This document shows, piece by piece, positions 29,404 to 48,777 of a stretch of 64,000 bases of DNA. This DNA is from an uncultured Candidatus Saccharibacteria bacterium. Lineage in GTDB: Bacteria; Patescibacteriota; Minisyncoccia; Minisyncoccales; PEYH01. The notes below the pieces were generated by a model. That model had not been told where the DNA came from, did no database searches, and was given only the letters and a program-made list of their open reading frames with translations. The stretch lies in assembly GCA_964388775.1 (NCBI GenBank), contig CAYMBW010000001.1, forward strand, positions 71,317 through 135,316, in the 5' to 3' direction. The number at the start of each line of letters is the position of its first letter. The first letter of the stretch is position 1. The translations under genes and the position numbers were made by a program.

Positions 29404-32400
29404 ATGGAAATAATTTTTCCTAAAATTGAAGAGAAAATAATAAAGTTTTGGAAAGAAAACCGGATTTTTGAAAAATCCTTGGAGAAAAAAGGAGGAGATT
29501 TTATTTTTTATGAAGGTCCGCCAACGGCCAATGGAAAGCCGGGAGTTCATCACGTTTTAGCGAGAGCGCTAAAAGATATAATCTGCCGTTATCAGACAAT
29601 GAAAGGGAAAAGGGTTTTAAGAAAAGCGGGATGGGATGTGCATGGGCTTCCGGTTGAACTGGAAGTTGAAAAACAGCTTGGATTACGGGATAAGAAAGAC
29701 ATAGAGAAATACGGAATAGCGCAATTTAATAAAGAGTGCAAGAAATCCATTTGGAAATATGCCGGCGAGTGGAAGGACCTTACGGAAAGAATTGGCTATT
29801 GGCTGGATATGGAGAATCCTTATGTCACTTCCGACCCTTATTATATGGAAAGTGTTTTTTATATAATTAAAAGGGTCTGGGAAAAGGGGCTGTTGTATCA
29901 AGGATATAAAGTTCTGCCTTATTGTCCGCGTTGCGGGACCGGGCTTTCGTCCCATGAAGTGGCGCAGGGATACAAAAAAATAGCGGAGAAAGCCATATAT
30001 GTGAAGTTTAAAGTCCAAAGTCCAAAGTCAAAAGTCCAAAGTCCAAAGTCCAAGGTCAAAAATGTAGAGACGGAAGACAATACTTATTTATTGGTTTGGA
30101 CAACAACCCCGTGGACCTTGCCGGCAAATGTGGCCATAGCCGTTAATCCGAAAATTGAATATGTCTTGGCAGAAAAAAATGGAGAGCAATTAATTTTGGC
30201 TAAAGCGAGGCAGGCAGTTTTGGGTGATGATTTTGAAATAATGCAGGAATTTAAAGGAAAGGATTTGGTCGGATTAAATTATGCTCCATTGTTCGACGAG
30301 AGCGTTGTTTCCGCGCAATCAGAAGGAAAGAATATTTATCAAGTTTTGCCGGCGCACTTTGTCACCACAGAGGAAGGAACCGGATTAGTCCATATTGCTC
30401 CTGCCTTTGGTCAGGATGATATGGAACTTATAAAAAGTCAAAATACAAAACCCAAAACAAAAAGTGGCGGAAGCGGAGAATTTCCGATTTTATTACCCGT
30501 GGATGAAAGCGGTAGATTCAGGCCGGAGGTAAAAGAATGGGCAGGGATATTTGTAAAAGACGCTGACCCGTTGATTACGGAACACTTGAGACAAAAGGGG
30601 CTTCTATTTAAGGAAGAAACACATGAACATGATTATCCATTTTGCTGGAGGTGCGATACTCCGCTTTTATACTACGCCAAAAAAAGCTGGTTTATAAAAA
30701 CAACAGCTCTTAAGAATAAATTAATAAGCAATAATCAAAAAATTAACTGGATGCCTTTGCACATAAAGGATGGAAGATTCGGCGAGTGGTTAAACGAGCT
30801 TAAGGATTGGGCTATTTCCCGCGAAAGATATTGGGGCACGCCCTTACCTATTTGGGAATGCCAAAAGTGCGCCGAAAAAATAGTTATTGGTTCAAGAAGT
30901 GATTTATTAAAACAAACATTTACGGCTAACAAATATTTTGTATTAAGGCACGGAGAGGCCGTCTCTAATGTAGAGGATTCGTTTTCTTCTTGGCCGGAGG
31001 GCAAAAAAGCGCCGCTTACTGAAAAAGGAAAAGAACAGCTGAAAAAACAAATACCATCATTGAAAAATAAAAAAATTGATTTAATAATTTCGTCAGATAT
31101 TTTGCGGACTTCGCAAACCGCGGAGATAATGGCAGATGCCCTGGGCGCCCAGGTTGTTTATGATGAACGTTTACGCGAGATAAACACCGGCTTATTGAAC
31201 GGAAGAGCGGTTCAGGAGGGAGTCAAGTACTTTAACCCGGACAATAGTTTGACTCGCGACCAGATTCTTTTGAAAAGATTTGAAGCCCAATTCCCCGAGG
31301 GAGAGAATTATTCAGAGGTAAAATTAAGAGAGCTGGATTTCATAGATGATATTAATAGAAAATATAAGGGCAAAAAGATATTGCTCGTGAGCCACGAGTT
31401 GCCAATTATGATGCTTAAAAGCATTGTCCTTGGTTTGACGAATAAAGAGTTCGTTGATAACGAGGAGGACCTTTCTATCGATACGGGAAAATTTCAGGAA
31501 TTGGATTTTCGTGCTTTTCCATATAATACAGAGGGAGAATTGGATTTTCATAGGCCATATATTGATGAAATAAAATTTGCTTGTCCCAAATGCGGAGGGA
31601 TAATGCAGCGAGTGCCGGAAGTTATGGATTGCTGGCTTGACTCCGGCTCAATGCCATTCGCTCAAGGCCATTGGCCCCTTAATGACCAATTATCAATAAT
31701 CAAAAATCATTTAGCGCCGCCGGAGTTATTCCCTGCTGACTACATCAGCGAGGCGATAGACCAAACAAGAGGATGGTTTTATACTCTTTTAGCGATTTCC
31801 ACTTTATTGGGATTCGGGCCGAGCTATAAAAATGTGATTGTTTCGGGGCACGTGCTGGATGAGAATAGTCAAAAAATGTCTAAATCCAAGGGCAATGTGG
31901 TTGACCCCTGGGAGATGGTGAAGAAATATGGAGCAGACGCTTTAAGATGGTATTTTTATACGGTTAACCAGCCGGGAGACCCAAAATCATTTATTGAAAA
32001 AGATGTTGATAACGCCCTAAAGAAATTCATTCTCACTTTATGGAATTGTCATATTTTCCTCCAGACATACAAGCCCAAAAATTTAGACCTAAATTCGCAG
32101 AGATTAAAGCCAAACAATTTGCTTGACAAATGGATTCTGTCTAAACTTAATGGTTTAATTATGGAAGTAACCGTCAACATTGATGCCTATAATATTACTG
32201 CCGCAGCGCGTCTGATTGAGGATTTTGTCATAAATGATTTGTCCCTATGGCATATTAGACGTTCCCGCAATCGATTGCAGAGACCCAAGGACGCAAAAGA
32301 AGCGGAAGAATCAGCATCTATTTTAGCAGCCGTTCTTACCAATATTTGTAAATTAACTGCGCCATTTATTCCTTTTTTGAGCGAAGAGATTTATCGAGAG

Positions 32401-41949: not shown

Positions 41950-43396
41950 AAAATTCTATATCTCCACGGCCTTGCCTTATGTCAATTCCATTCCCCATAT
42001 CGGCTTTGCTTTGGAAATCATATATGCAGATGTCTTGGCCCGTTATCATCGCAGTTTAGGCGAGGATGTCTTCTTTTTGACCGGCACTGACGAAAATGGG
42101 TTGAAAATTGCTCGGGCAGCGGAAGAATCAGGAGTTCCGGTGAAAGAATTTGCCAGGAAGAATGCCGAGGCCTTCCGCGAACTCAAAGAAATCCTTAACT
42201 TGTCTTTTGATGATTTTATAAGAACCACCGAAGAAAGGCATATTAAAGCGGTTTATAAATTATGGCAGACGTGTAAGCAAGATATCTATAAAAAGAAGTA
42301 TCAAGGCCTTTATTGTGTCGGATGCGAACGATTCTATAAAGAAGAAGATTTGGCCGATGGACTGTGTCCGGAACACAAAACAAAACCGGAATTTATAGAA
42401 GAAGAAAATTATTTTTTTAAGCTTTCTAAATACGAAGAACAGCTCAAAGAATTGATAGAAGAAGATATTTTGAAAATTGTCCCGCAAACCCGCAAAAACG
42501 AAGTTTTAAGTTTTATTAACAAAGGGCTTGAGGATATTTGTATTTCTCGTTCGTCTAAGAGAGCGAGGAATTGGGGCATACCGGTGCCGGGCGACGAGAG
42601 CCAATTTTGCTGGTGCTGGTTTGATGCGGTGATAAACTATATCAGTGCTTTGGGATATGGGGTTGATGATAAAAATTTTCAGCAATGGTGGCAGGCAAAT
42701 AATAATAATAAAATTCATGTTATTGGCAAGGGAATTTTAAATTTCCATGCCCTTTACTGGCCCGCAGCCCTTCTGTCCGCTGGATTATCCCTGCCTAATA
42801 TTTTGTTTGTTCACGGTTATGTCACCGTGGGAGGGCAGAAAATGTCTAAAAGTTTGGGGAACATTGTTAGCCCCAAAGAATTAGCCGGGAAATACGGGAT
42901 TGACGCGGTGCGATACTTTTTTTTAAGAGAGGCATCTCCTTTTGATGACAGCGATTTTACCATTGAGAAATTTGAAGAGAGATATAATGCGGATTTGGCG
43001 AAGGGGCTGGGGAATCTCGTTGCGAGGGTAGTAACCCTCGCAAGTAAGTCCAAAGTCCAAAGTCCAAAGTCCAAAGTAAAAATTACAATTCAAAACCCAA
43101 AACCAAAAGAAGAAATAGCCAAAACTCAAGAGAATTATAAAAGGGCATTAGAGGAATTTAAATTTAATGAAGCGTTGCGAACAATCTGGGGGCTAATAGG
43201 ATTTTGCGATAGATATATTGAGCAGGAGCGGCCTTGGGAGGGCACGGAAAACAAATCATTAATTATTAATGATTTGTTGTTGGCAATTGAAGAAGTCGCC
43301 AAATTACTTGAACCATTCTTGCCAGAGACCTCGCAAAAAATAACGGCCCAACTCCAATCCTTAGAATCTGTTCCTCTCTTTCCCCGTTTGGCCTGA
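41921..43396 (+). CDS. metG: methionyl-tRNA synthetase (short form) with 7-nt-repeat insert
   Basis: YVNSIPHIGF (HIGH-like), KMSKSLGN, zinc knuckle CVGCERF...CPEH; SKSKVQSPKSKVKI encoded by GTCCAAA repeats at 43048-43075. Confidence 0.9.
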   Translation: MSKEMAKKNKKFYISTALPYVNSIPHIGFALEIIYADVLARYHRSLGEDVFFLTGTDENGLKIARAAEESGVPVKEFARKNAEAFRELKEILNLSFDDFIRTTEERHIKAVYKLWQTCKQDIYKKKYQGLYCVGCERFYKEEDLADGLCPEHKTKPEFIEEENYFFKLSKYEEQLKELIEEDILKIVPQTRKNEVLSFINKGLEDICISRSSKRARNWGIPVPGDESQFCWCWFDAVINYISALGYGVDDKNFQQWWQANNNNKIHVIGKGILNFHALYWPAALLSAGLSLPNILFVHGYVTVGGQKMSKSLGNIVSPKELAGKYGIDAVRYFFLREASPFDDSDFTIEKFEERYNADLAKGLGNLVARVVTLASKSKVQSPKSKVKITIQNPKPKEEIAKTQENYKRALEEFKFNEALRTIWGLIGFCDRYIEQERPWEGTENKSLIINDLLLAIEEVAKLLEPFLPETSQKITAQLQSLESVPLFPRLA

Positions 43397-43432: not shown

Positions 43433-44311
43433 ATGTTCATAGACACCCACGCCCATCTTAATTTCCCTGCTTTTGTGAAAGACAGGGATAAGCTCATAAA
43501 AGAGTGCCTTAAAAAAGATATTTGGCTTATAAATGTTGGCACTAATCTTTTTACTTCCAAAAAAGCAGTTGAAATTGCCCAGCGTTATGGTGAGGGAGTT
43601 TACGCTTCAATTGGTCTGCATCCGCTTAATCTTGACACCGGTTTTGTCAAAATAAAAATTGACAAGGATGAAGTAGACAAGGAAGAAAGTCCGTTTGAAT
43701 CAGAATTTGATTATGAGACCTATCAAAAACTCGCTTTTGACAAAAAAGTAGTGGCAATAGGGGAAATCGGGCTGGATTATTATTGGAAACCGAAAACCAA
43801 AATAAAATTGGAGAAATTTAAAGAGGCCCAGAATATTTTATTCCGTCAACAGTTAAGATTGGCGAAAGAATTGGATTTACCGATTATCATCCACTGCCGA
43901 ATGGCTCATGATGATTTAATAAGAATTTTGAAAGAGCAATCCTTAATTTATGATTCCAATTTCAAGGGAGTAATTCATTGTTTCACCGGCAACTGGGAAC
44001 AGGCAAGGGCCTATATGGCAATGGGATTTCATATCGGGTTCAATGGTATAATTTTTAAATTTGATCAAGACGATATTATTAAGAAAATGCCTTTAGAAAA
44101 AATGTTAATTGAGACAGATTGTCCCTATTTGTTACCGCCAAAATATAAGAAAAAAATCAATGACCCGATGGGCGTGGAATATGTGGCTAAGGAAATCGCT
44201 AAAATCAGAAACATTTCTCTTAAAGAGGTTGCTGACCAAACCACCCAAAACGCCCAAAAATTGTTCATTGGCATTAGTAAGCTGGTTGACAAAAGTGGCA
44301 AAAAAGTTTAA
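43433..44311 (+). CDS. tatD: TatD family metal-dependent hydrolase
   Basis: MFIDTHAHLNF..., conserved His/Glu/Asp pattern. Confidence 0.85.
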   Translation: MFIDTHAHLNFPAFVKDRDKLIKECLKKDIWLINVGTNLFTSKKAVEIAQRYGEGVYASIGLHPLNLDTGFVKIKIDKDEVDKEESPFESEFDYETYQKLAFDKKVVAIGEIGLDYYWKPKTKIKLEKFKEAQNILFRQQLRLAKELDLPIIIHCRMAHDDLIRILKEQSLIYDSNFKGVIHCFTGNWEQARAYMAMGFHIGFNGIIFKFDQDDIIKKMPLEKMLIETDCPYLLPPKYKKKINDPMGVEYVAKEIAKIRNISLKEVADQTTQNAQKLFIGISKLVDKSGKKV

Positions 44312-44336
44312 AATAAAACCAATTCAGAGATTCAAG

Positions 44337-44462
44337 GAGGAAAGACATGAAATGGAATCCAATTTCCCCAATAAAGAGGGACCTGAAGAAAGATTTAACA
44401 GTTCTTTTCAATTGGCTTATTGGTTTAGCCAAAAGACATAAGAACAGACCCCGCTCTTATTG
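44337..44462 (+). CDS. 41-aa small hypothetical protein
   Basis: Strong SD AAGGAGG 7 nt upstream of the ATG; followed by a terminator; below the ORF-track cutoff. Confidence 0.3.
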
Positions 44463-44487
44463 GGATGTTTAGTATGAGGAGATTATA

Positions 44488-44512
44488 ACCGAGCCTAGCT
44501 CGGTTTTTTTTA
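44488..44512 (+). terminator. rho-independent terminator
   Basis: ACCGAGC-cta-GCTCGGT followed by TTTTTTTT. Confidence 0.7.
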
Positions 44513-44541
44513 TTGAAAAATTTGGGGATTCTGGATAGAAT
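44513..44541 (+). promoter_or_regulatory. promoter copy 1 (TTGAAA, 17 nt, TAGAAT); duplicate of the leuS promoter
   Basis: 40-nt direct repeat with 45469-45508 (TTATTGAAAAATTTGGGGATTYTG..TAGAAT). Confidence 0.5.
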
Positions 44542-44598
44542 AGAATTAGTGTTTTTTTATTTTAACTGTTTTATCACTTTTTCCATTCCGTTATCCAT

Positions 44599-44620
44599 TT
44601 CGTTACCGAGTAACGAAACG
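44599..44620 (+). repeat. REP-like palindrome TTCGTTACCGAGTAACGAAA (copy 1)
   Basis: Second direct copy at 44640-44660; inverted copy at 45413-45431 on the far side of the transposase gene. Confidence 0.7.
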
Positions 44621-44639
44621 ATATTACAGATATTAGATA

Positions 44640-44660
44640 TTCGTTACCGAGTAACGAAAT
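44640..44660 (+). repeat. REP-like palindrome (copy 2)
   Basis: TCGTTACCGAGTAACGAAAT. Confidence 0.7.
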
Positions 44661-44699
44661 ATGTAACGAAATATAACGAAATGGAATGAAATATATTAT

Positions 44700-45383
44700 A
44701 TGAGAAAAACGCAATTGGTTTCGGGAGAATATTATCATATCTATAATCACGGAGTTGATGATCGTAAAGTTTTTGAAAATAATACTGATTTTATGAGAGC
44801 AGCAGTCAATCTAACGGTTTTTAATGATGCGAAGTCTTCTCCCGGAATACTTTCTCGTTTTGTTAAAGACCCCTCAAAACTTATTGATTCCTATATGCCC
44901 GATAATCGAGAACGGTTGATCGATATTATTGCTTTCACATTAAACTCTAATCATTATCATCTTTTTGTAAGGCAAAAAGCTGAAAAAGGAATTTCTCGTT
45001 TTATGCATTCTTTTGACAAAGGTTATGCCCGCTATTTTAATCTTAAAAACGATCGAAGGGGCGCGCTTTGGGAAGGCAGTTTTGGAATTAAACTAATTGA
45101 TAATGAGTCCTATTTTTTTCACATCATGGACTATGTCCATCTGAATGTTCTTGATAATTTCCAACCCAAGTGGCGTGATGGCAGGATAGAGAATTGGGAA
45201 AGGGCTGCTGTAGACATGAAGAATTATATTTGGTCAAGCTATCCTTATTATCGCACCGGGACAAGTCAAATTCCTTTTATGAATTTGATAATCACAAGAC
45301 CTGATTGGTTAAAGGAATATTGTCCAAAGCCAGAGGATTTTGAGAAAAGCGTTCATCTTTGGTCAATGCGAAACACTTTATGA
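44700..45383 (+). CDS. REP-associated tyrosine transposase (RAYT, IS200/IS605-like Y1 HUH transposase)
   Basis: YYHIYNHGVDDRKVF (motif I), HuH motif NHYHLFV, catalytic Tyr region NYIWSSYPYY; flanked by inverted REP palindromes. Confidence 0.7.
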   Translation: MRKTQLVSGEYYHIYNHGVDDRKVFENNTDFMRAAVNLTVFNDAKSSPGILSRFVKDPSKLIDSYMPDNRERLIDIIAFTLNSNHYHLFVRQKAEKGISRFMHSFDKGYARYFNLKNDRRGALWEGSFGIKLIDNESYFFHIMDYVHLNVLDNFQPKWRDGRIENWERAAVDMKNYIWSSYPYYRTGTSQIPFMNLIITRPDWLKEYCPKPEDFEKSVHLWSMRNTL

Positions 45384-45412
45384 ATATTATGATAGCTATC
45401 GTTATCCGCGTA

Positions 45413-45431
45413 TCGTTACTCGGTAACGAAA
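45413..45431 (-). repeat. REP-like palindrome (inverted copy)
   Basis: TCGTTACTCGGTAACGAAAG, reverse complement of the upstream copies (the central CGA/TCG gives the orientation). Confidence 0.7.
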
Positions 45432-45474
45432 GATAACACTAAGTGGATGATGTCATATGAACCAGCGCATTTTA

Positions 45475-45503
45475 TTGAAAAATTTGGGGATTTTGCGTAG
45501 AAT
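45475..45503 (+). promoter_or_regulatory. leuS promoter (TTGAAA, 17 nt, TAGAAT) giving a leaderless or near-leaderless mRNA
   Basis: -10 hexamer ends 8 nt before the leuS ATG at 45512. Confidence 0.5.
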
Positions 45504-45511
45504 GAAGAGTA

Positions 45512-48085
45512 ATGAACAGTTATGACCCAAAAGCAATAGAGGGCAAATGGCAGGCAAAATGGGAAGAGGGGAAGATGTTTGAAGCCAAGGATTCTTCAAA
45601 AAAACCCAAGTTTTTTGTTTTGGATATGTTCCCCTATCCTTCGGGTGACGGTCTTCATGTCGGTCATCCGCGGGGATATGTGGGGACTGATGTGATTGCC
45701 CACTATATGAGGATGAAAGGATATAATGTCTTGCATCCTATGGGTTGGGATGCTTTTGGTTTGCCGGCAGAGAATTACGCCATTAAAACAGGAATTCTTC
45801 CTGCTATTTCCACAAAGAAAAACATAGCAAGATTTAAAGAGCAGATGAAGTTAATCGGCCTTTCTTATGATTGGTCGCGGGAAATTAATACCACTGACCC
45901 GAATTATTATAAATGGACTCAATGGATTTTTCTTTTACTTTTTGAACGAGGCCTTGCGTACCAAGAAACATTGCCGATTAATTGGTGTCCTTCCTGTAAA
46001 ACGGGCCTTGCCAACGAAGAAGTAGTAGCCGGCAGATGTGAGCGTTGTGGCGCGGAAGTTACGAAAAAGAACATTAAACAGTGGGTTTTGAAAATTACGG
46101 ATTATGCGGAAGAATTACTTGAAGGATTAAATAAATTGGATTGGCCGGAAAAAATAAAAGAGATGCAGAGAAATTGGATAGGGAAATCTGTTGGCGCGGA
46201 TATAATATTTCAAGTTAAAAGTCCAAAGTTAAAAGCCCAAAGTCCGAATCCGGAAATCGGAAATTTTATCAAAGTATTTACAACGAGGCCGGATACGATT
46301 TTCGGAGCGACATTTATGGTCTTAGCGCCCGAACATGAATTGGTAGAAAAAATTACCACTCCGGGACAATCGGCTCGGGTGAAGGAATATCAAGAAAATA
46401 CAAAAAACAAGATGGATATTGAGCGTCAACTTGAGGACAAAGAGAAAACAGGAGTTTTTACCGGCGCTTTCGCTATCAATCCGGCCAATAGCAAAGAAAT
46501 CCCGATTTATATTGCGGATTATGTCTTGCCTTTTTATGGCTACGGCGCAATTATGGCAGTGCCGGGGCACGATGAGAGAGATTTTTCATTCGCCAAAAAA
46601 TATAATCTGCCGATTGTAAAAGTGATAGAGGACCAAGGCCCAAAGTTCGAAGTCCAAAATTTAGAAGAAAGAGGAATAGAGGAGGTTTATGAAGGGGAGG
46701 GGATTTTGATTAACTCCGACAGATTTGACGGGACGGAATCCGAAAAGGCGGGCAAAAAGATTGTAAAATGGATAGAGGGAGCTGAGCCGACCGTGAATTA
46801 TAAATTAAGGGATTGGATATTTTCAAGACAAAGATATTGGGGAGAGCCCATCCCGCTAATTTTTTGCGAGAACTGCAAAAAATTAGCGGAAAATCCAAAG
46901 TCCAAAATTCAAAAACCAAAATTTAGCAAAGGAGAATTATTAAATCCGGGATGGATTGCTTTGCCAAAAGAGAATTTGCCTTTAGTTTTGCCGGAGCTTG
47001 AAAAATATGAGCCGACCGGCACGGGCGAGTCGCCTTTGGCAAGCCGGCCTGAGTGGGTAAAAACAATTTGTCCCAGGTGCGGCGGCCGGGCTTTCCGTGA
47101 GACCAATACAATGCCCCAGTGGGCTGGCTCTTGTTGGTATTTCCTCGCGTATGTAATGCGAGAAAATCCAAAATCCAAAATCCAAAATCCAAAATTGGTT
47201 TGGGACAAAAAGAAGATTAAATATTGGTTGCCTGTTGATTTCTATATTGGCGGGGCAGAACACGCCGTCTTACATCTTTTGTACTCCCGCTTTTGGATAA
47301 AAGTTTTATCTGACGCAAAAATTATAGAATTTGACGAGCCGTTTAAAAAGTTGGTTACCCTCGGCTTGATTTTGGCGTCCAATGGTCAAAAAATGTCCAA
47401 GTCGCGGGGCAATGTAATTAATCCAGACGATATTATTGAGCAATACGGAGCTGATGCGTTCCGTCTTTATGAAATGTTTATGGGTCCCTTCAACCAGCCG
47501 ATTGCTTGGGATACTGAAAATATCATAGGGGTTAGAAGATTTTTAGAGAAAATCTGGAAGTTTTTTGAAAAATCTCAAATTCCAAATTCCAAATCTCAAA
47601 AAAATTCCAATATTCAGAATACAAACATTGAAAGAATGCTGCATCAAACAATAAAGAAAGTTACCGGAGATATTGAAACTCAAAAATTTAATACTGCCAT
47701 TGCTTCTATGATGGAGCTTATTAATAAAATTCAAAATTCGAAAGCTCAAATTCAAATCAATACCTTAGAAACTTTTTTAAAGATTTTAGCGCCGTTTGCC
47801 CCGCATATTGCGGAAGAGCTATGGAGCAGATTGGGACATGAAGAATCTCTATTCAAGGAGAAATGGCCGGAATATAATCCGAAGATGATTGTTGAAGAAG
47901 AAGTCAAATTAGTCATTCAAATTAATGGCAAGGTTCGTGGTACGATTGTTGTTTCGGCGGATTTGCCTGGAAAAGAGGCGGTCAAATTAGCCATTGAGTC
48001 CGATGTTGCCGAAAAATGGCTTGAGAACAAAAAAATCCAAAAAACGATTTTTGTCAAAGGCAAATTAATTAATTTTGTGATTTAG
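45512..48085 (+). CDS. leuS: leucyl-tRNA synthetase with several 7-nt-repeat inserts
   Basis: HVGHPRGY (HIGH), KMSKSRGN; inserts KSPKLKAQSPNP, ENPKSKIQKPKF, ENPKSKIQNPK and KSQIPNSKSQKNSNIQ encoded by heptanucleotide repeats. Confidence 0.9.
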   Translation: MNSYDPKAIEGKWQAKWEEGKMFEAKDSSKKPKFFVLDMFPYPSGDGLHVGHPRGYVGTDVIAHYMRMKGYNVLHPMGWDAFGLPAENYAIKTGILPAISTKKNIARFKEQMKLIGLSYDWSREINTTDPNYYKWTQWIFLLLFERGLAYQETLPINWCPSCKTGLANEEVVAGRCERCGAEVTKKNIKQWVLKITDYAEELLEGLNKLDWPEKIKEMQRNWIGKSVGADIIFQVKSPKLKAQSPNPEIGNFIKVFTTRPDTIFGATFMVLAPEHELVEKITTPGQSARVKEYQENTKNKMDIERQLEDKEKTGVFTGAFAINPANSKEIPIYIADYVLPFYGYGAIMAVPGHDERDFSFAKKYNLPIVKVIEDQGPKFEVQNLEERGIEEVYEGEGILINSDRFDGTESEKAGKKIVKWIEGAEPTVNYKLRDWIFSRQRYWGEPIPLIFCENCKKLAENPKSKIQKPKFSKGELLNPGWIALPKENLPLVLPELEKYEPTGTGESPLASRPEWVKTICPRCGGRAFRETNTMPQWAGSCWYFLAYVMRENPKSKIQNPKLVWDKKKIKYWLPVDFYIGGAEHAVLHLLYSRFWIKVLSDAKIIEFDEPFKKLVTLGLILASNGQKMSKSRGNVINPDDIIEQYGADAFRLYEMFMGPFNQPIAWDTENIIGVRRFLEKIWKFFEKSQIPNSKSQKNSNIQNTNIERMLHQTIKKVTGDIETQKFNTAIASMMELINKIQNSKAQIQINTLETFLKILAPFAPHIAEELWSRLGHEESLFKEKWPEYNPKMIVEEEVKLVIQINGKVRGTIVVSADLPGKEAVKLAIESDVAEKWLENKKIQKTIFVKGKLINFVI
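48035..48084 (+). repeat. 50-bp direct repeat copy 1 (native 3' end of leuS)
   Basis: ATCCAAAAAACGATTTTTGTCAAAGGCAAATTAATTAATTTTGTGATTT identical to 48814-48863; both copies end in a stop codon (TAG vs TGA). Confidence 0.8.
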
Positions 48086-48196
48086 TCAACGGAACATTGA
48101 GGTTAATTTTATTTTTCTAATGTTTGTCCTCTGGTGTCCAGAATCTCCGGTTTTGTTTTCTTGAAAGTAGATTTTTATTGTGGTACATTAAAGGAT

Positions 48197-48412
48197 ATGA
48201 ACCATATCATCGCTAATCCAAAAGTTTTTGGAGGCAAACCCATTGTTAAGGGAACCAGGATTTCTGTTGAATTTATTATGGAATTGACCGCTTCTGGTAT
48301 GACGATTGATGAAATCGTGAAAGAATACCCGATTCTTAAGAGAGGTGATATCCTGGCAGCCATTAAATACGCCACTCAGGTCTTCAAAAAGCAAGAGCTT
48401 GTTTTTGCTTAA
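48197..48412 (+). CDS. DUF433-family small protein (putative antitoxin)
   Basis: MNHIIANPKVFGGKPIVKGTRISVEFIMELTASGMTIDEIVKEYPILKRGDILAAIKYA matches the DUF433 consensus; SD AAAGGA. Confidence 0.6.
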   Translation: MNHIIANPKVFGGKPIVKGTRISVEFIMELTASGMTIDEIVKEYPILKRGDILAAIKYATQVFKKQELVFA

Positions 48413-48420
48413 TTTTTCCT

Positions 48421-48777
48421 ATGAAATTTTTAGCTGATGCTAATATTGCTCCGAGGACAATTAAAGCTCTTAGACAAGCGGACTTTAATGTTAAGAGCAT
48501 AATCGAGGAAGGCCAAGGAGAGATATCCGACGAAAAAGTAATTAAGTTGGCCACCAAAGAGAGTCGTATCATTTTGACGCACGATAAAGATTTCGGAAAT
48601 ATTTTAATTTACCCCGTCTTAAAACACAAAGGGGTTATTTTAATTCGGCTTAGAAATCAAAGACCCCAGAATGTTATTAGACGTCTTGTTCCTTTTTTGG
48701 AGGCAATCTCTCTAAAGAAAATAAAAAATAATCTTATAATTTTAACCGAGAAAGGAATTAGAGCATATAAAGAATAA
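48421..48777 (+). CDS. DUF5615-family PIN-like protein (putative toxin partner of DUF433)
   Basis: MKFLADANIAPRTIKALRQADFNV...ILTHDKDFG; 8-nt spacing after the DUF433 gene. Confidence 0.55.
   Translation: MKFLADANIAPRTIKALRQADFNVKSIIEEGQGEISDEKVIKLATKESRIILTHDKDFGNILIYPVLKHKGVILIRLRNQRPQNVIRRLVPFLEAISLKKIKNNLIILTEKGIRAYKE

Follow-up and report, generated by a model that had tools for sequence, protein, structure and literature searches.

A Y1/HUH transposase-like gene and its flanking hairpins within the leuS promoter region of a patescibacterial genome

Class-2 Y1 proteins, which comprise the REP-associated tyrosine transposases (RAYTs) and relatives without repetitive extragenic palindromes (REPs), are present in about a quarter of bacterial species, and their actual role is open. 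The RAYT gene of E. coli does not move and presumably acts on REPs in trans only. From the work of Nunvar in 2010 and of Bertels and Rainey in 2011, the RAYT genes of E. coli and Pseudomonas are said to be flanked by palindromes of the REP or BIME (bacterial interspersed mosaic element) type, an arrangement called a REPtron. Here we describe a locus of comparable layout in an uncultured Candidatus Saccharibacteria bacterium, found on a stretch of 64,000 nucleotides (assembly GCA_964388775.1, contig CAYMBW010000001.1, positions 71,317 to 135,316), the whole of which is called the window below. The genome is of the Patescibacteria/Parcubacteria type, in keeping with a first-pass annotation of the sequence that had called it similar to the candidate phyla radiation (CPR). 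An intact gene for a Y1/HUH protein, with short hairpins on both sides, lies within the promoter region of leuS, the essential gene for leucyl-tRNA synthetase (LeuRS), and this cassette is a real and well-delimited feature. We consider it probable, with some room for doubt, that it is a self-contained REPtron-like unit, consisting of a class-2 (RAYT/TIRYT-like) HUH-Y1 nuclease gene and its cognate hairpins, which is gained and lost as a whole.

In the REPtron, a tnpA-REP (RAYT) gene is bracketed by REP/BIME palindromes (Ton-Hoang 2012, PMC3333891), and canonical REPs are defined by a GT[AG]G foot at the 5' side of the hairpin (PMC6006769, PMC3733652, PMC3333891). Another described group is TnpA-Y1 subclass 2.1 (Quentin et al. 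2018, PMC6006769), which corresponds to Group 1 of the RAYTs (Bertels et al. 2017, PMC5581495) and largely to the TIRYT or "TIRtron" proteins (Di Nocera et al. 2013, PMC3733652). Its members have been reported without REP-like hairpins and are flanked at most by terminal inverted repeats (TIRs) that are long and carry GGGG[AT][CG]A[CG] (PMC6006769), and Group 1 is the most insertion-sequence-like of the RAYT groups apart from Group 6 (PMC5581495). Among the papers listed by a literature search combining RAYT and Patescibacteria, none dealt with RAYT-type genes in these bacteria; those listed were unrelated microbiome studies.

The cassette proper is about 924 bp long (0.93 kb; 44546..45469, + strand) and is enclosed by two copies of a leuS-type promoter on the same strand (44508..44545 and 45470..45506); its boundaries were placed at the points where the two copies cease to match. 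The left copy (-35 TTGAAA at 44513-44518, -10 TAGAAT at 44536-44541) faces the Y1 gene, and the right copy (-35 at 45475-45480, -10 at 45498-45503) lies 8 nt before the ATG of leuS (45512..48085, + strand). On its left, the native promoter region of leuS is bounded by the intrinsic terminator of a small upstream open reading frame (ORF), found by a terminator scan (44487..44512, + strand; stem 44487-44505 followed by a T-run). The promoter repeat (44508-44541 and 45470-45503) is 34 nt long and identical at 31 of 34 positions, the initial 23 nt exactly, and has two copies only within the window. Both copies read TTGAAA-17-TAGAAT and scored 10/12 in a consensus scan. The first-pass annotation had noted this duplicated promoter and had given it 40 nt; both copies are present, with a length of 34-38 nt. 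It had also proposed that the unit was inserted between the copies; relative to the closest genomes, where a single promoter precedes leuS, the unit is indeed an insertion or deletion. The distance from the stop of the small ORF to the leuS ATG is 1039 nt in the window versus 117 nt in the closest relative, L023 (related loci are numbered with the letter L). The cassette has a GC content of 34.8% and is slightly AT-richer than its neighbours, and the GC content at third codon positions is 30.7% in the Y1 gene versus 38-41% in metS, tatD and leuS and 33.8% in glmS.

The three closest genomes, L023, L029 and L024, whose neighbouring proteins are 74-88% identical to those of the window, have no Y1 gene at this site. 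The order in L023 is tatD, small ORF, its terminator, one promoter and leuS; in L029 the single promoter comes directly after tatD, and in L024 it comes after a terminator. Relatives with the empty site keep the order terminator, T-run, promoter. Compared with these genomes, the cassette appears as an insertion or deletion that was gained or lost as one unit. The exact Y1 protein was found on 24 contigs, flanked in all of them by tatD and leuS, and neither Y1 gene nor hairpin was present at any of the 80 leuS loci obtained by scanning GTDB species representatives with LeuRS. Three Y1-bearing genomes could be placed on a neighbour-joining tree of LeuRS, namely the window, L011 and L009, and each of them had Y1-less sisters (L023; L025; L067 and L070, respectively).

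The Y1 gene (44700..45383, + strand; supported by Pfam, alignment and structural model) encodes a homologue of Y1/HUH single-strand DNA nuclease-transposases of 227 aa and is the one Y1 gene within the window. The HUH/Y1 motifs, from which the first-pass annotation had named this ORF, were substantiated by the Pfam model PF01797 Y1_Tnp, which matched with E 1.7e-8 and 35 bits, above its cut-off of 23. In the protein, N84-H85-Y86-H87 forms the HUH motif and Y145-V-H-L-N149 the tyrosine motif; H85, H87, Tyr145, Asn149, the N-terminal Y12-H13 and the C-terminal Ser180 are invariant in an alignment of 28 homologues. The residue following Asn149, which is P in the class-2 motif Y---NP, is V in the window (YVHLNV) and V, I or P within the subfamily. 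An AlphaFold model of the protein had a mean predicted local distance difference test score (pLDDT) of 92 and a predicted template modelling score (pTM) of 0.90, and its C-terminal extension of about 80 aa is modelled as helical. In Foldseek this model matched best to 4ER8, in which E. coli TnpA-REP is in complex with a REP hairpin, and next to TnpA of IS608 and ISDra2 (probability 1.00 for 4ER8, 2A6M, 2VJV and 2XO6), and a profile search of PDB sequences gave the same ranking. The NCBIfam models NF047646 REP_Tyr_transpos and NF033573 transpos_IS200 scored 28.8 and 15.1 bits, below their cut-offs of 80 and 55, respectively. These comparisons place the protein closer to RAYT (TnpA-REP) than to IS200 TnpA. 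No domain other than Y1_Tnp was detected by Pfam at E up to 1, and no helix-turn-helix (HTH) domain was detected in the C-terminal part.

A HMMER search of 1.84 billion cluster representatives yielded 7883 relatives at E up to 1e-3. Since one representative alone exceeded 43% identity, the hairpin-linked subfamily is narrow. In viral contigs there were two distant homologues only (21-26% identity), and plasmids gave matches only at 33% identity or less, so nothing points to carriage by a phage or plasmid.

Four homologues, L007 (75% identical), L009 (65%), L110 (63%) and L011 (60%), lie directly upstream of leuS on the same strand, and in each of them the Y1 gene is flanked left and right by hairpins and by a promoter-like site. 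Because the Y1 gene is adjacent to leuS in four other lineages, the cassette of the window is no one-off insertion. In L009 the genes further upstream differ from those of the window, and its LeuRS shares just 54% identity with the LeuRS encoded in the window. Homologues of 54-58% identity lie before unrelated genes, which encode a 2589-aa protein (L103), a 116-aa ORF (L106), an MgsA-type ATPase (L107) and a hypothetical protein (L112). These four and L113, together covering 49-58% identity, share the hairpin, the downstream side of L113 being a contig edge. The non-leuS homologues are as close in Y1 identity to some of the leuS-linked copies as the latter are among themselves. A more distant homologue of 34% identity, without the CGTTAC hairpin, was seen at L114 2018-2678, where its stop (2677) meets the start of uvrB (2678); this arrangement suggests co-transcription with the repair gene.

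Three copies of a palindrome with the consensus (T)TCGTTAC-N3-GTAACGA(A) and 3-nt loops flank the Y1 gene, all at 100 nt or less from the ORF; the chance expectation in shuffled sequence was zero matches. Hairpin 1 (TTTCGTTAC-CGA-GTAACGAAA, 44598..44618) has a 9-bp stem and hairpin 2 (TTCGTTAC-CGA-GTAACGAA, 44640..44658) an 8-bp stem, and the sequence TTCGTTACCGAGTAACGAAA occurs exactly at 44599-44618 and 44640-44659. Hairpin 3 (TCGTTAC-TCG-GTAACGA, 45413..45429) has a 7-bp stem within an imperfect palindrome at 45399-45436, and this third copy (45412-45431) differs by one stem-end mismatch (ATCG for TTCG) and by a reversed 3-nt loop (TCG vs CGA). As the stems are perfect palindromes, orientation can be read only from the loop and flanks. 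Two direct copies upstream and one inverted copy downstream had been described by the first-pass annotation, and the loops agree with this arrangement, with all features within 1-2 nt of where it had placed them. Hairpins 1 and 2 are enclosed by outer arms (44581-44594 and 44673-44686, 93% complementary) to form a composite left-end palindrome at 44581..44686. As single-stranded DNA (ssDNA) the left cassette end folds with -22.6 kcal/mol (z = -4.9), and none of 200 shuffles folded as well. Tandem Repeats Finder also located an array of about four copies of the 3' half-site (A)GTAACGAAAT with a period of 10-11 nt (44650..44693, + strand), which lies between hairpin 2 and the Y1 start codon; by inspection, similar half-site repeats are present in L011, L110 and L007. 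The cassette further has imperfect inverted arms of 49 nt (I1, 73% complementary).

The hairpin is a property of the subfamily. At all homologues of 49-75% identity with a readable locus, (C)GTTAC-N3-GTAAC(G) occurs once or twice to either side of the gene, and the hairpin core is missing at homologues of 34-37% identity (L108, L114). Among 19 aligned hairpins from seven lineages, the inner five pairs (GTTAC/GTAAC) are essentially invariant and the outer stem pairs covary, with UA, AU or CG at pair 8-26 and UA or CG, without any unpaired cell, at pair 9-25. Paired cells make up 84% overall versus 29-47% in slid controls, and the covariation score was reached by none of 500 shuffles. No GTAG or GTGG adjoins any of the 19 hairpins. 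The loops are inverted between the two sides in the window and L110 and direct in L009, L011, L107 and L112. Inverted hairpin doublets were seen in L103 (232-293 and 999-1060) and L113 (448-500), which could fold into a REPIN-like stem-loop (a REP doublet forming a hairpin) of about 50 nt; those of L103 are repeated directly on both sides of its Y1 gene.

Beyond the three flanking copies, no palindrome was found in the window, even with two mismatches and any loop allowed. The flanks scanned at ten Y1 loci amount to about 133 kb, and 26 of the 27 GTTAC-N3-GTAAC hairpins in these ten lineages lie within 160 nt of the ORF, the remaining one being 368 nt upstream. There was no hairpin in 743 kb around leuS of the 80 Y1-less species. 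Within the sequence examined, the cassette occurs once and a dispersed population of REPs or REPINs was not found. A metagenome scan for the 19-nt palindrome gave eight contigs, none with a Y1 or LeuRS homologue; the source sample was evidently outside this collection, and the scan is silent on dispersal in the host. By their GC content (42-68%), six of the eight were unrelated, and one operator-like context was shared by four of these six. These four (L016-L019, GC 56-59%) carry the palindrome TTCGTTACCGAGTAACGAA in a conserved context of an unrelated high-GC organism. A Y1 gene is absent there, L019 has two copies at a distance of 2.3 kb, and the palindrome is probably a protein operator unrelated to the cassette.

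The history of the promoter repeat was followed in an alignment of leuS promoters (A3). The left window copy tracks the single leuS promoter of Y1-less relatives to about 4 nt beyond the -10 and then diverges. Across 39 columns, including a spacer that is free to vary between species, the window copies are 82% identical to each other, and each is 59-62% identical to the promoter of L023. Since the copies are far more alike than the orthologous promoters of the window and L023, their duplication, or a conversion, is younger than that split. The window pair is alone above the between-genome range of 44-77%, within which fall the left/right identities of L009 (74%), L011 (72%), L007 (62%) and L110 (56%). 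A shuffle test covered the pairs of the window, L009, L011 and L007. Mere likeness to the sigma-70 consensus was ruled out for the first three, whose local alignment scores (54, 45 and 34, respectively) were each reached by none of 300 shuffles; for the window the shuffles averaged 16 and did not exceed 24. The L007 pair scored 23, which was reached by 9 of 300, and mere consensus similarity fits it. By these sequence measures the duplication is clear for both the window and L009 and of middling strength for L011, while the likeness in L007 and L110 does not go beyond that of the consensus. At the non-leuS sites, flanking duplications were limited to short or ambiguous repeats, such as a 15-mer in L103 seen by eye, so promoter duplication cannot be taken as general for the family. 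In L007 and L110 the right copies are closer to the L009 and L011 copies than to native promoters (35-37 vs 28-32 of about 45 positions), which gives a weak signal, to be taken as a lead, that the right-hand promoter may travel with the element.

The leuS promoter itself (TTGAAAA..ATTTTAGGTAAGATAAA) is unusually conserved between species in A3. The -10 hexamer lies 8-9 nt from the ATG, without a Shine-Dalgarno sequence, in all compared Patescibacteria (45498-45514 in the window), and the leuS mRNA is probably leaderless. Whatever the origin of the duplication, an insertion into this gap would part leuS from its promoter if the right side did not carry one too. For 44000-46000, Rfam returned (E up to 1) two sub-threshold small RNA matches only, and no T-box or other leader before leuS. 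The small ORF upstream is a stand-alone gene, with a promoter at 44286-44314 (11/12 consensus), a GGAGG ribosome-binding site, a reading frame of 41 aa at 44347-44472 (MKWNP...RPRSYWDV) and the terminator stem at 44487-44505. As similar "KW" small ORFs precede leuS in the Y1-bearing L007, L009, L011 and L110 and in the Y1-less L023 and L028, it belongs to the host and not to the cassette.

By analogy, the cassette would work most like a REPtron or an IS200/IS605 element, that is, a Y1 enzyme with cognate hairpins. With the REPtron it shares a single-copy HUH-Y1 gene between such hairpins, present at one locus and patchy across lineages, the closest structure and profile match (4ER8), and the class-2 tyrosine motif Y---N. 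It differs from the REPtron in having no detected dispersed REP or REPIN, in a hairpin whose stem is perfect, whose loop has 3 nt and which is without the GT[AG]G tag, in a protein that remains under the NCBIfam RAYT cut-off and has the extra helical C-terminal region of about 80 aa, and in the duplicated host promoter on its flanks. The motifs NHYH (NH[YF]H), LWE (W[EQ]) and YVHLN (Y[IV]HLNP), the SS tail WSSY, and the length of 227 aa versus a median of 238 resemble subclass 2.1, membership being judged on motifs by inspection against Table 1 of PMC6006769. Unlike subclass 2.1, the cassette has clear short flanking hairpins, and the HTH-like C-terminal similarity reported there (Bac_DnaA_C, HTH_23, HTH_28) was not detected in its protein by Pfam. 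No GGGG[AT][CG]A[CG] was seen by eye in the 49-nt inverted arms.

Like IS608 and ISDra2 of the IS200/IS605 family, the cassette has a Y1 gene between subterminal hairpins and matches in the HUH fold; the hairpins are direct in L009 and L011, the ends of the element lie about 10-55 nt outside the hairpins, and next to the left end there is a conserved short motif, made up of the -10 and about 4 nt more, which is what insertion 3' of a specific target would lead one to expect. Unlike them, it has no tnpB, and its 34-nt flanking direct repeat is not produced by peel-and-paste transposition. Membership of IS200/IS605 was ruled out by the score (15.1 vs 55 bits), the motif Y---N instead of Y---Q, the length (227 vs about 150 aa), the single copy and the flanking repeat. 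A conserved site beside an essential gene, which remains functional because the sequence it needs lies on both sides of the insert, also recalls islands that target tRNA genes and Tn7 at attTn7. Unlike those, the enzyme here is HUH-Y1 and not a tyrosine or serine recombinase or TnsABCD, and att-type recombination is meant as an analogy only.

From the sequence we infer the following course of events. The hairpins would fold once the DNA becomes single-stranded, for example during replication, and the Y1 protein would bind them and, with its HUH metal site and Tyr145, cut and rejoin the adjacent DNA. Such cutting and rejoining beside the hairpins would make the cassette excisable or insertable as one unit, and thus possibly mobile and open to horizontal transfer. 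The insertion point would be about 4 nt past the -10 box, ahead of the nearly leaderless leuS; the right promoter copy would maintain leuS expression, and the left copy would transcribe the Y1 gene through a hairpin-rich leader. Three routes to the promoter duplication were considered. Read-through of the right end may have captured the downstream promoter, and the unit may then have inserted 3' of a motif formed by the -10 and 4 nt, which would explain why both junctions lie at the same point relative to the -10; alternatively, the repeat may come from Campbell-type integration through promoter homology, or from an unequal crossover in which two insertions, one to each side of the promoter, took part.

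Whether the unit was gained repeatedly at a preferred site is close to evenly balanced in our judgment. We counted for repeated gain the many losses otherwise needed, the identity of Y1 in L009, which is above that of LeuRS and CofD, the presence of the family at other loci, the 82% alike promoter copies and the AT-richness of the cassette. The more specific proposal, that the unit is a site-specific ssDNA mobile element of the class-2 Y1 type which inserts just 3' of the -10, mostly in the leuS promoter, in Patescibacteria, and carries at its right end a replacement promoter captured from an earlier host, is offered tentatively and we rather doubt it.

Several points weigh against a unit that moves by Y1 chemistry. 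The proposed chemistry does not account for the 34-nt flanking repeat, as ssDNA transposition of the Y1/IS200 type is not known to leave a duplicated target. Six contigs from different samples showed no differences over 1.4 kb, which gives no population sign of excision. The higher conservation of Y1 than of LeuRS in pairs with L009 could be saturation and not horizontal transfer, and the search for dispersed hairpins in the host genome spans 64 kb only. The E. coli REPtron shows the same patchy pattern at a single locus, and this has been read as one old acquisition with losses in some clades (PMC3333891).

The last point leads to the strongest rival, which we hold to be possible although we lean against it, namely that there was one ancient insertion into the leuS promoter in an ancestor of Patescibacteria, followed by vertical inheritance of a domesticated RAYT-like gene and many precise losses. 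Such losses could occur by recombination between the promoter repeats, gene conversion would keep the repeats alike, and the gene would be immobile now. The flanking direct repeats ease precise loss, which would leave exactly the observed empty site, and the REPtron of E. coli, always at one locus, offers a precedent. Locus and orientation are the same in five lineages, and there is one copy per genome as far as visible. The Y1 identity between the window and L011 (60%) is inside the range of 13 neighbouring housekeeping proteins (36-76%), and the unrooted four-taxon topologies of Y1 and LeuRS agree. A possible saturation of protein distances also speaks for this reading. However, an ancient insertion requires many independent losses, since all three placed Y1 genomes have a Y1-less sister and none of the 80 GTDB loci is filled. 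It also has to meet the Y1 identities of 65-71% for L009 versus the others, against 54-58% for LeuRS and 40% for CofD; the equally similar homologues (54-65%) at unrelated genes, so that the family changes location; and the window promoter copies, which are much more alike than the orthologous promoters of the window and L023.

We think it unlikely that the palindromes are in the first place double-stranded operators, bound by a dimer of the Y1-like protein or its helical C-terminal domain, which would regulate its own transcription and read-through into leuS and make the unit a regulatory module. Perfect palindromes with a fixed 3-nt centre, the half-site array with a period of one helical turn (10-11 nt) between promoter and start codon, and the 19-mer in an operator-like context in unrelated bacteria fit this proposal, and covariation that preserves palindromy suits a dimeric site as well as a hairpin. 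The HUH and Tyr residues are, however, invariant throughout the family, which argues for retained nuclease chemistry; the C-terminal part has no Pfam HTH domain; and neither the presence/absence polymorphism nor the differing genomic sites are explained. The operator function is not exclusive of a REPtron-like unit and is compatible with it.

An E. coli-like REP density of roughly one per 8-13 kb, by our own estimate, would predict about ten extra copies here. The classic RAYT/REPIN system that the first-pass annotation had proposed, in which the palindromes are members of a genome-wide population mobilised in trans and the Y1 gene is immobile, is very improbable, because the relationship of the protein to TnpA-REP, the flanking palindromes with loops inverted in the window and L110, and the REPIN-like inverted doublets of L103 and L113 are opposed by the lack of any further copy in the 64 kb, by a single hairpin among 27 at more than 160 nt from Y1 in about 133 kb at ten loci and none in 743 kb, by the missing GT[AG]G foot, by the 28.8 of 80 bits, by the direct hairpins of L009 and L011, and by motifs that fit subclass 2.1, reported without REPs (PMC6006769). 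The annotation had named two findings that would speak against it, absence of the palindrome elsewhere in the genome and a failure to match Y1 models; the former is what the available sequence gives as far as it extends, and the latter did not arise, as the Y1 model matches. The cassette is not the classic REPIN/RAYT system, and it differs from subclass 2.1 by the clear flanking hairpins.

Two other features were noticed in the window. Tandem heptanucleotide repeats (AAAGTCC/AAAATCC, 4-7 copies, on the + strand only) are found in coding sequence at 30010-30061, 43046-43077 (metS), and 46890-46922 and 47163-47195 (both leuS), and are translated as KSKVQSPKSKV in MetRS and PKSKIQNPKSKIQ in LeuRS. 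They may contribute to the identity of about 70% between the LeuRS of the window and that of L023, against 78-88% for neighbouring proteins. Between leuS and glmS there is a gene pair of DUF433 and PIN-like (DUF5615/PIN_10) type (48134-48777), which is probably a toxin-antitoxin module; glmS directly follows leuS in L011, L024 and L029, and the pair is a second lineage-specific insertion beside leuS.

This narrow CPR subfamily provides a simple natural system, with one gene and one short covarying hairpin type, and the sequence examined is free of a dispersed-repeat background. By comparing filled with empty sites among related genomes, the limits of the unit can be set with an accuracy of a few bases, and the substrate and products of the enzyme are directly testable with oligonucleotides. 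The locus is also an example of a tolerated insertion in the promoter of an essential, nearly leaderless gene, by means of promoter duplication. If the unit is instead an old resident that is often lost, it would be an ordinary domesticated-transposase locus in a new phylum. If it is a site-specific element with a carried promoter, its protein would be the first of the Y1 class 2 whose cargo is defined by filled and empty sites found in nature, and its site specificity would parallel integrative elements that rebuild their target tRNA gene.

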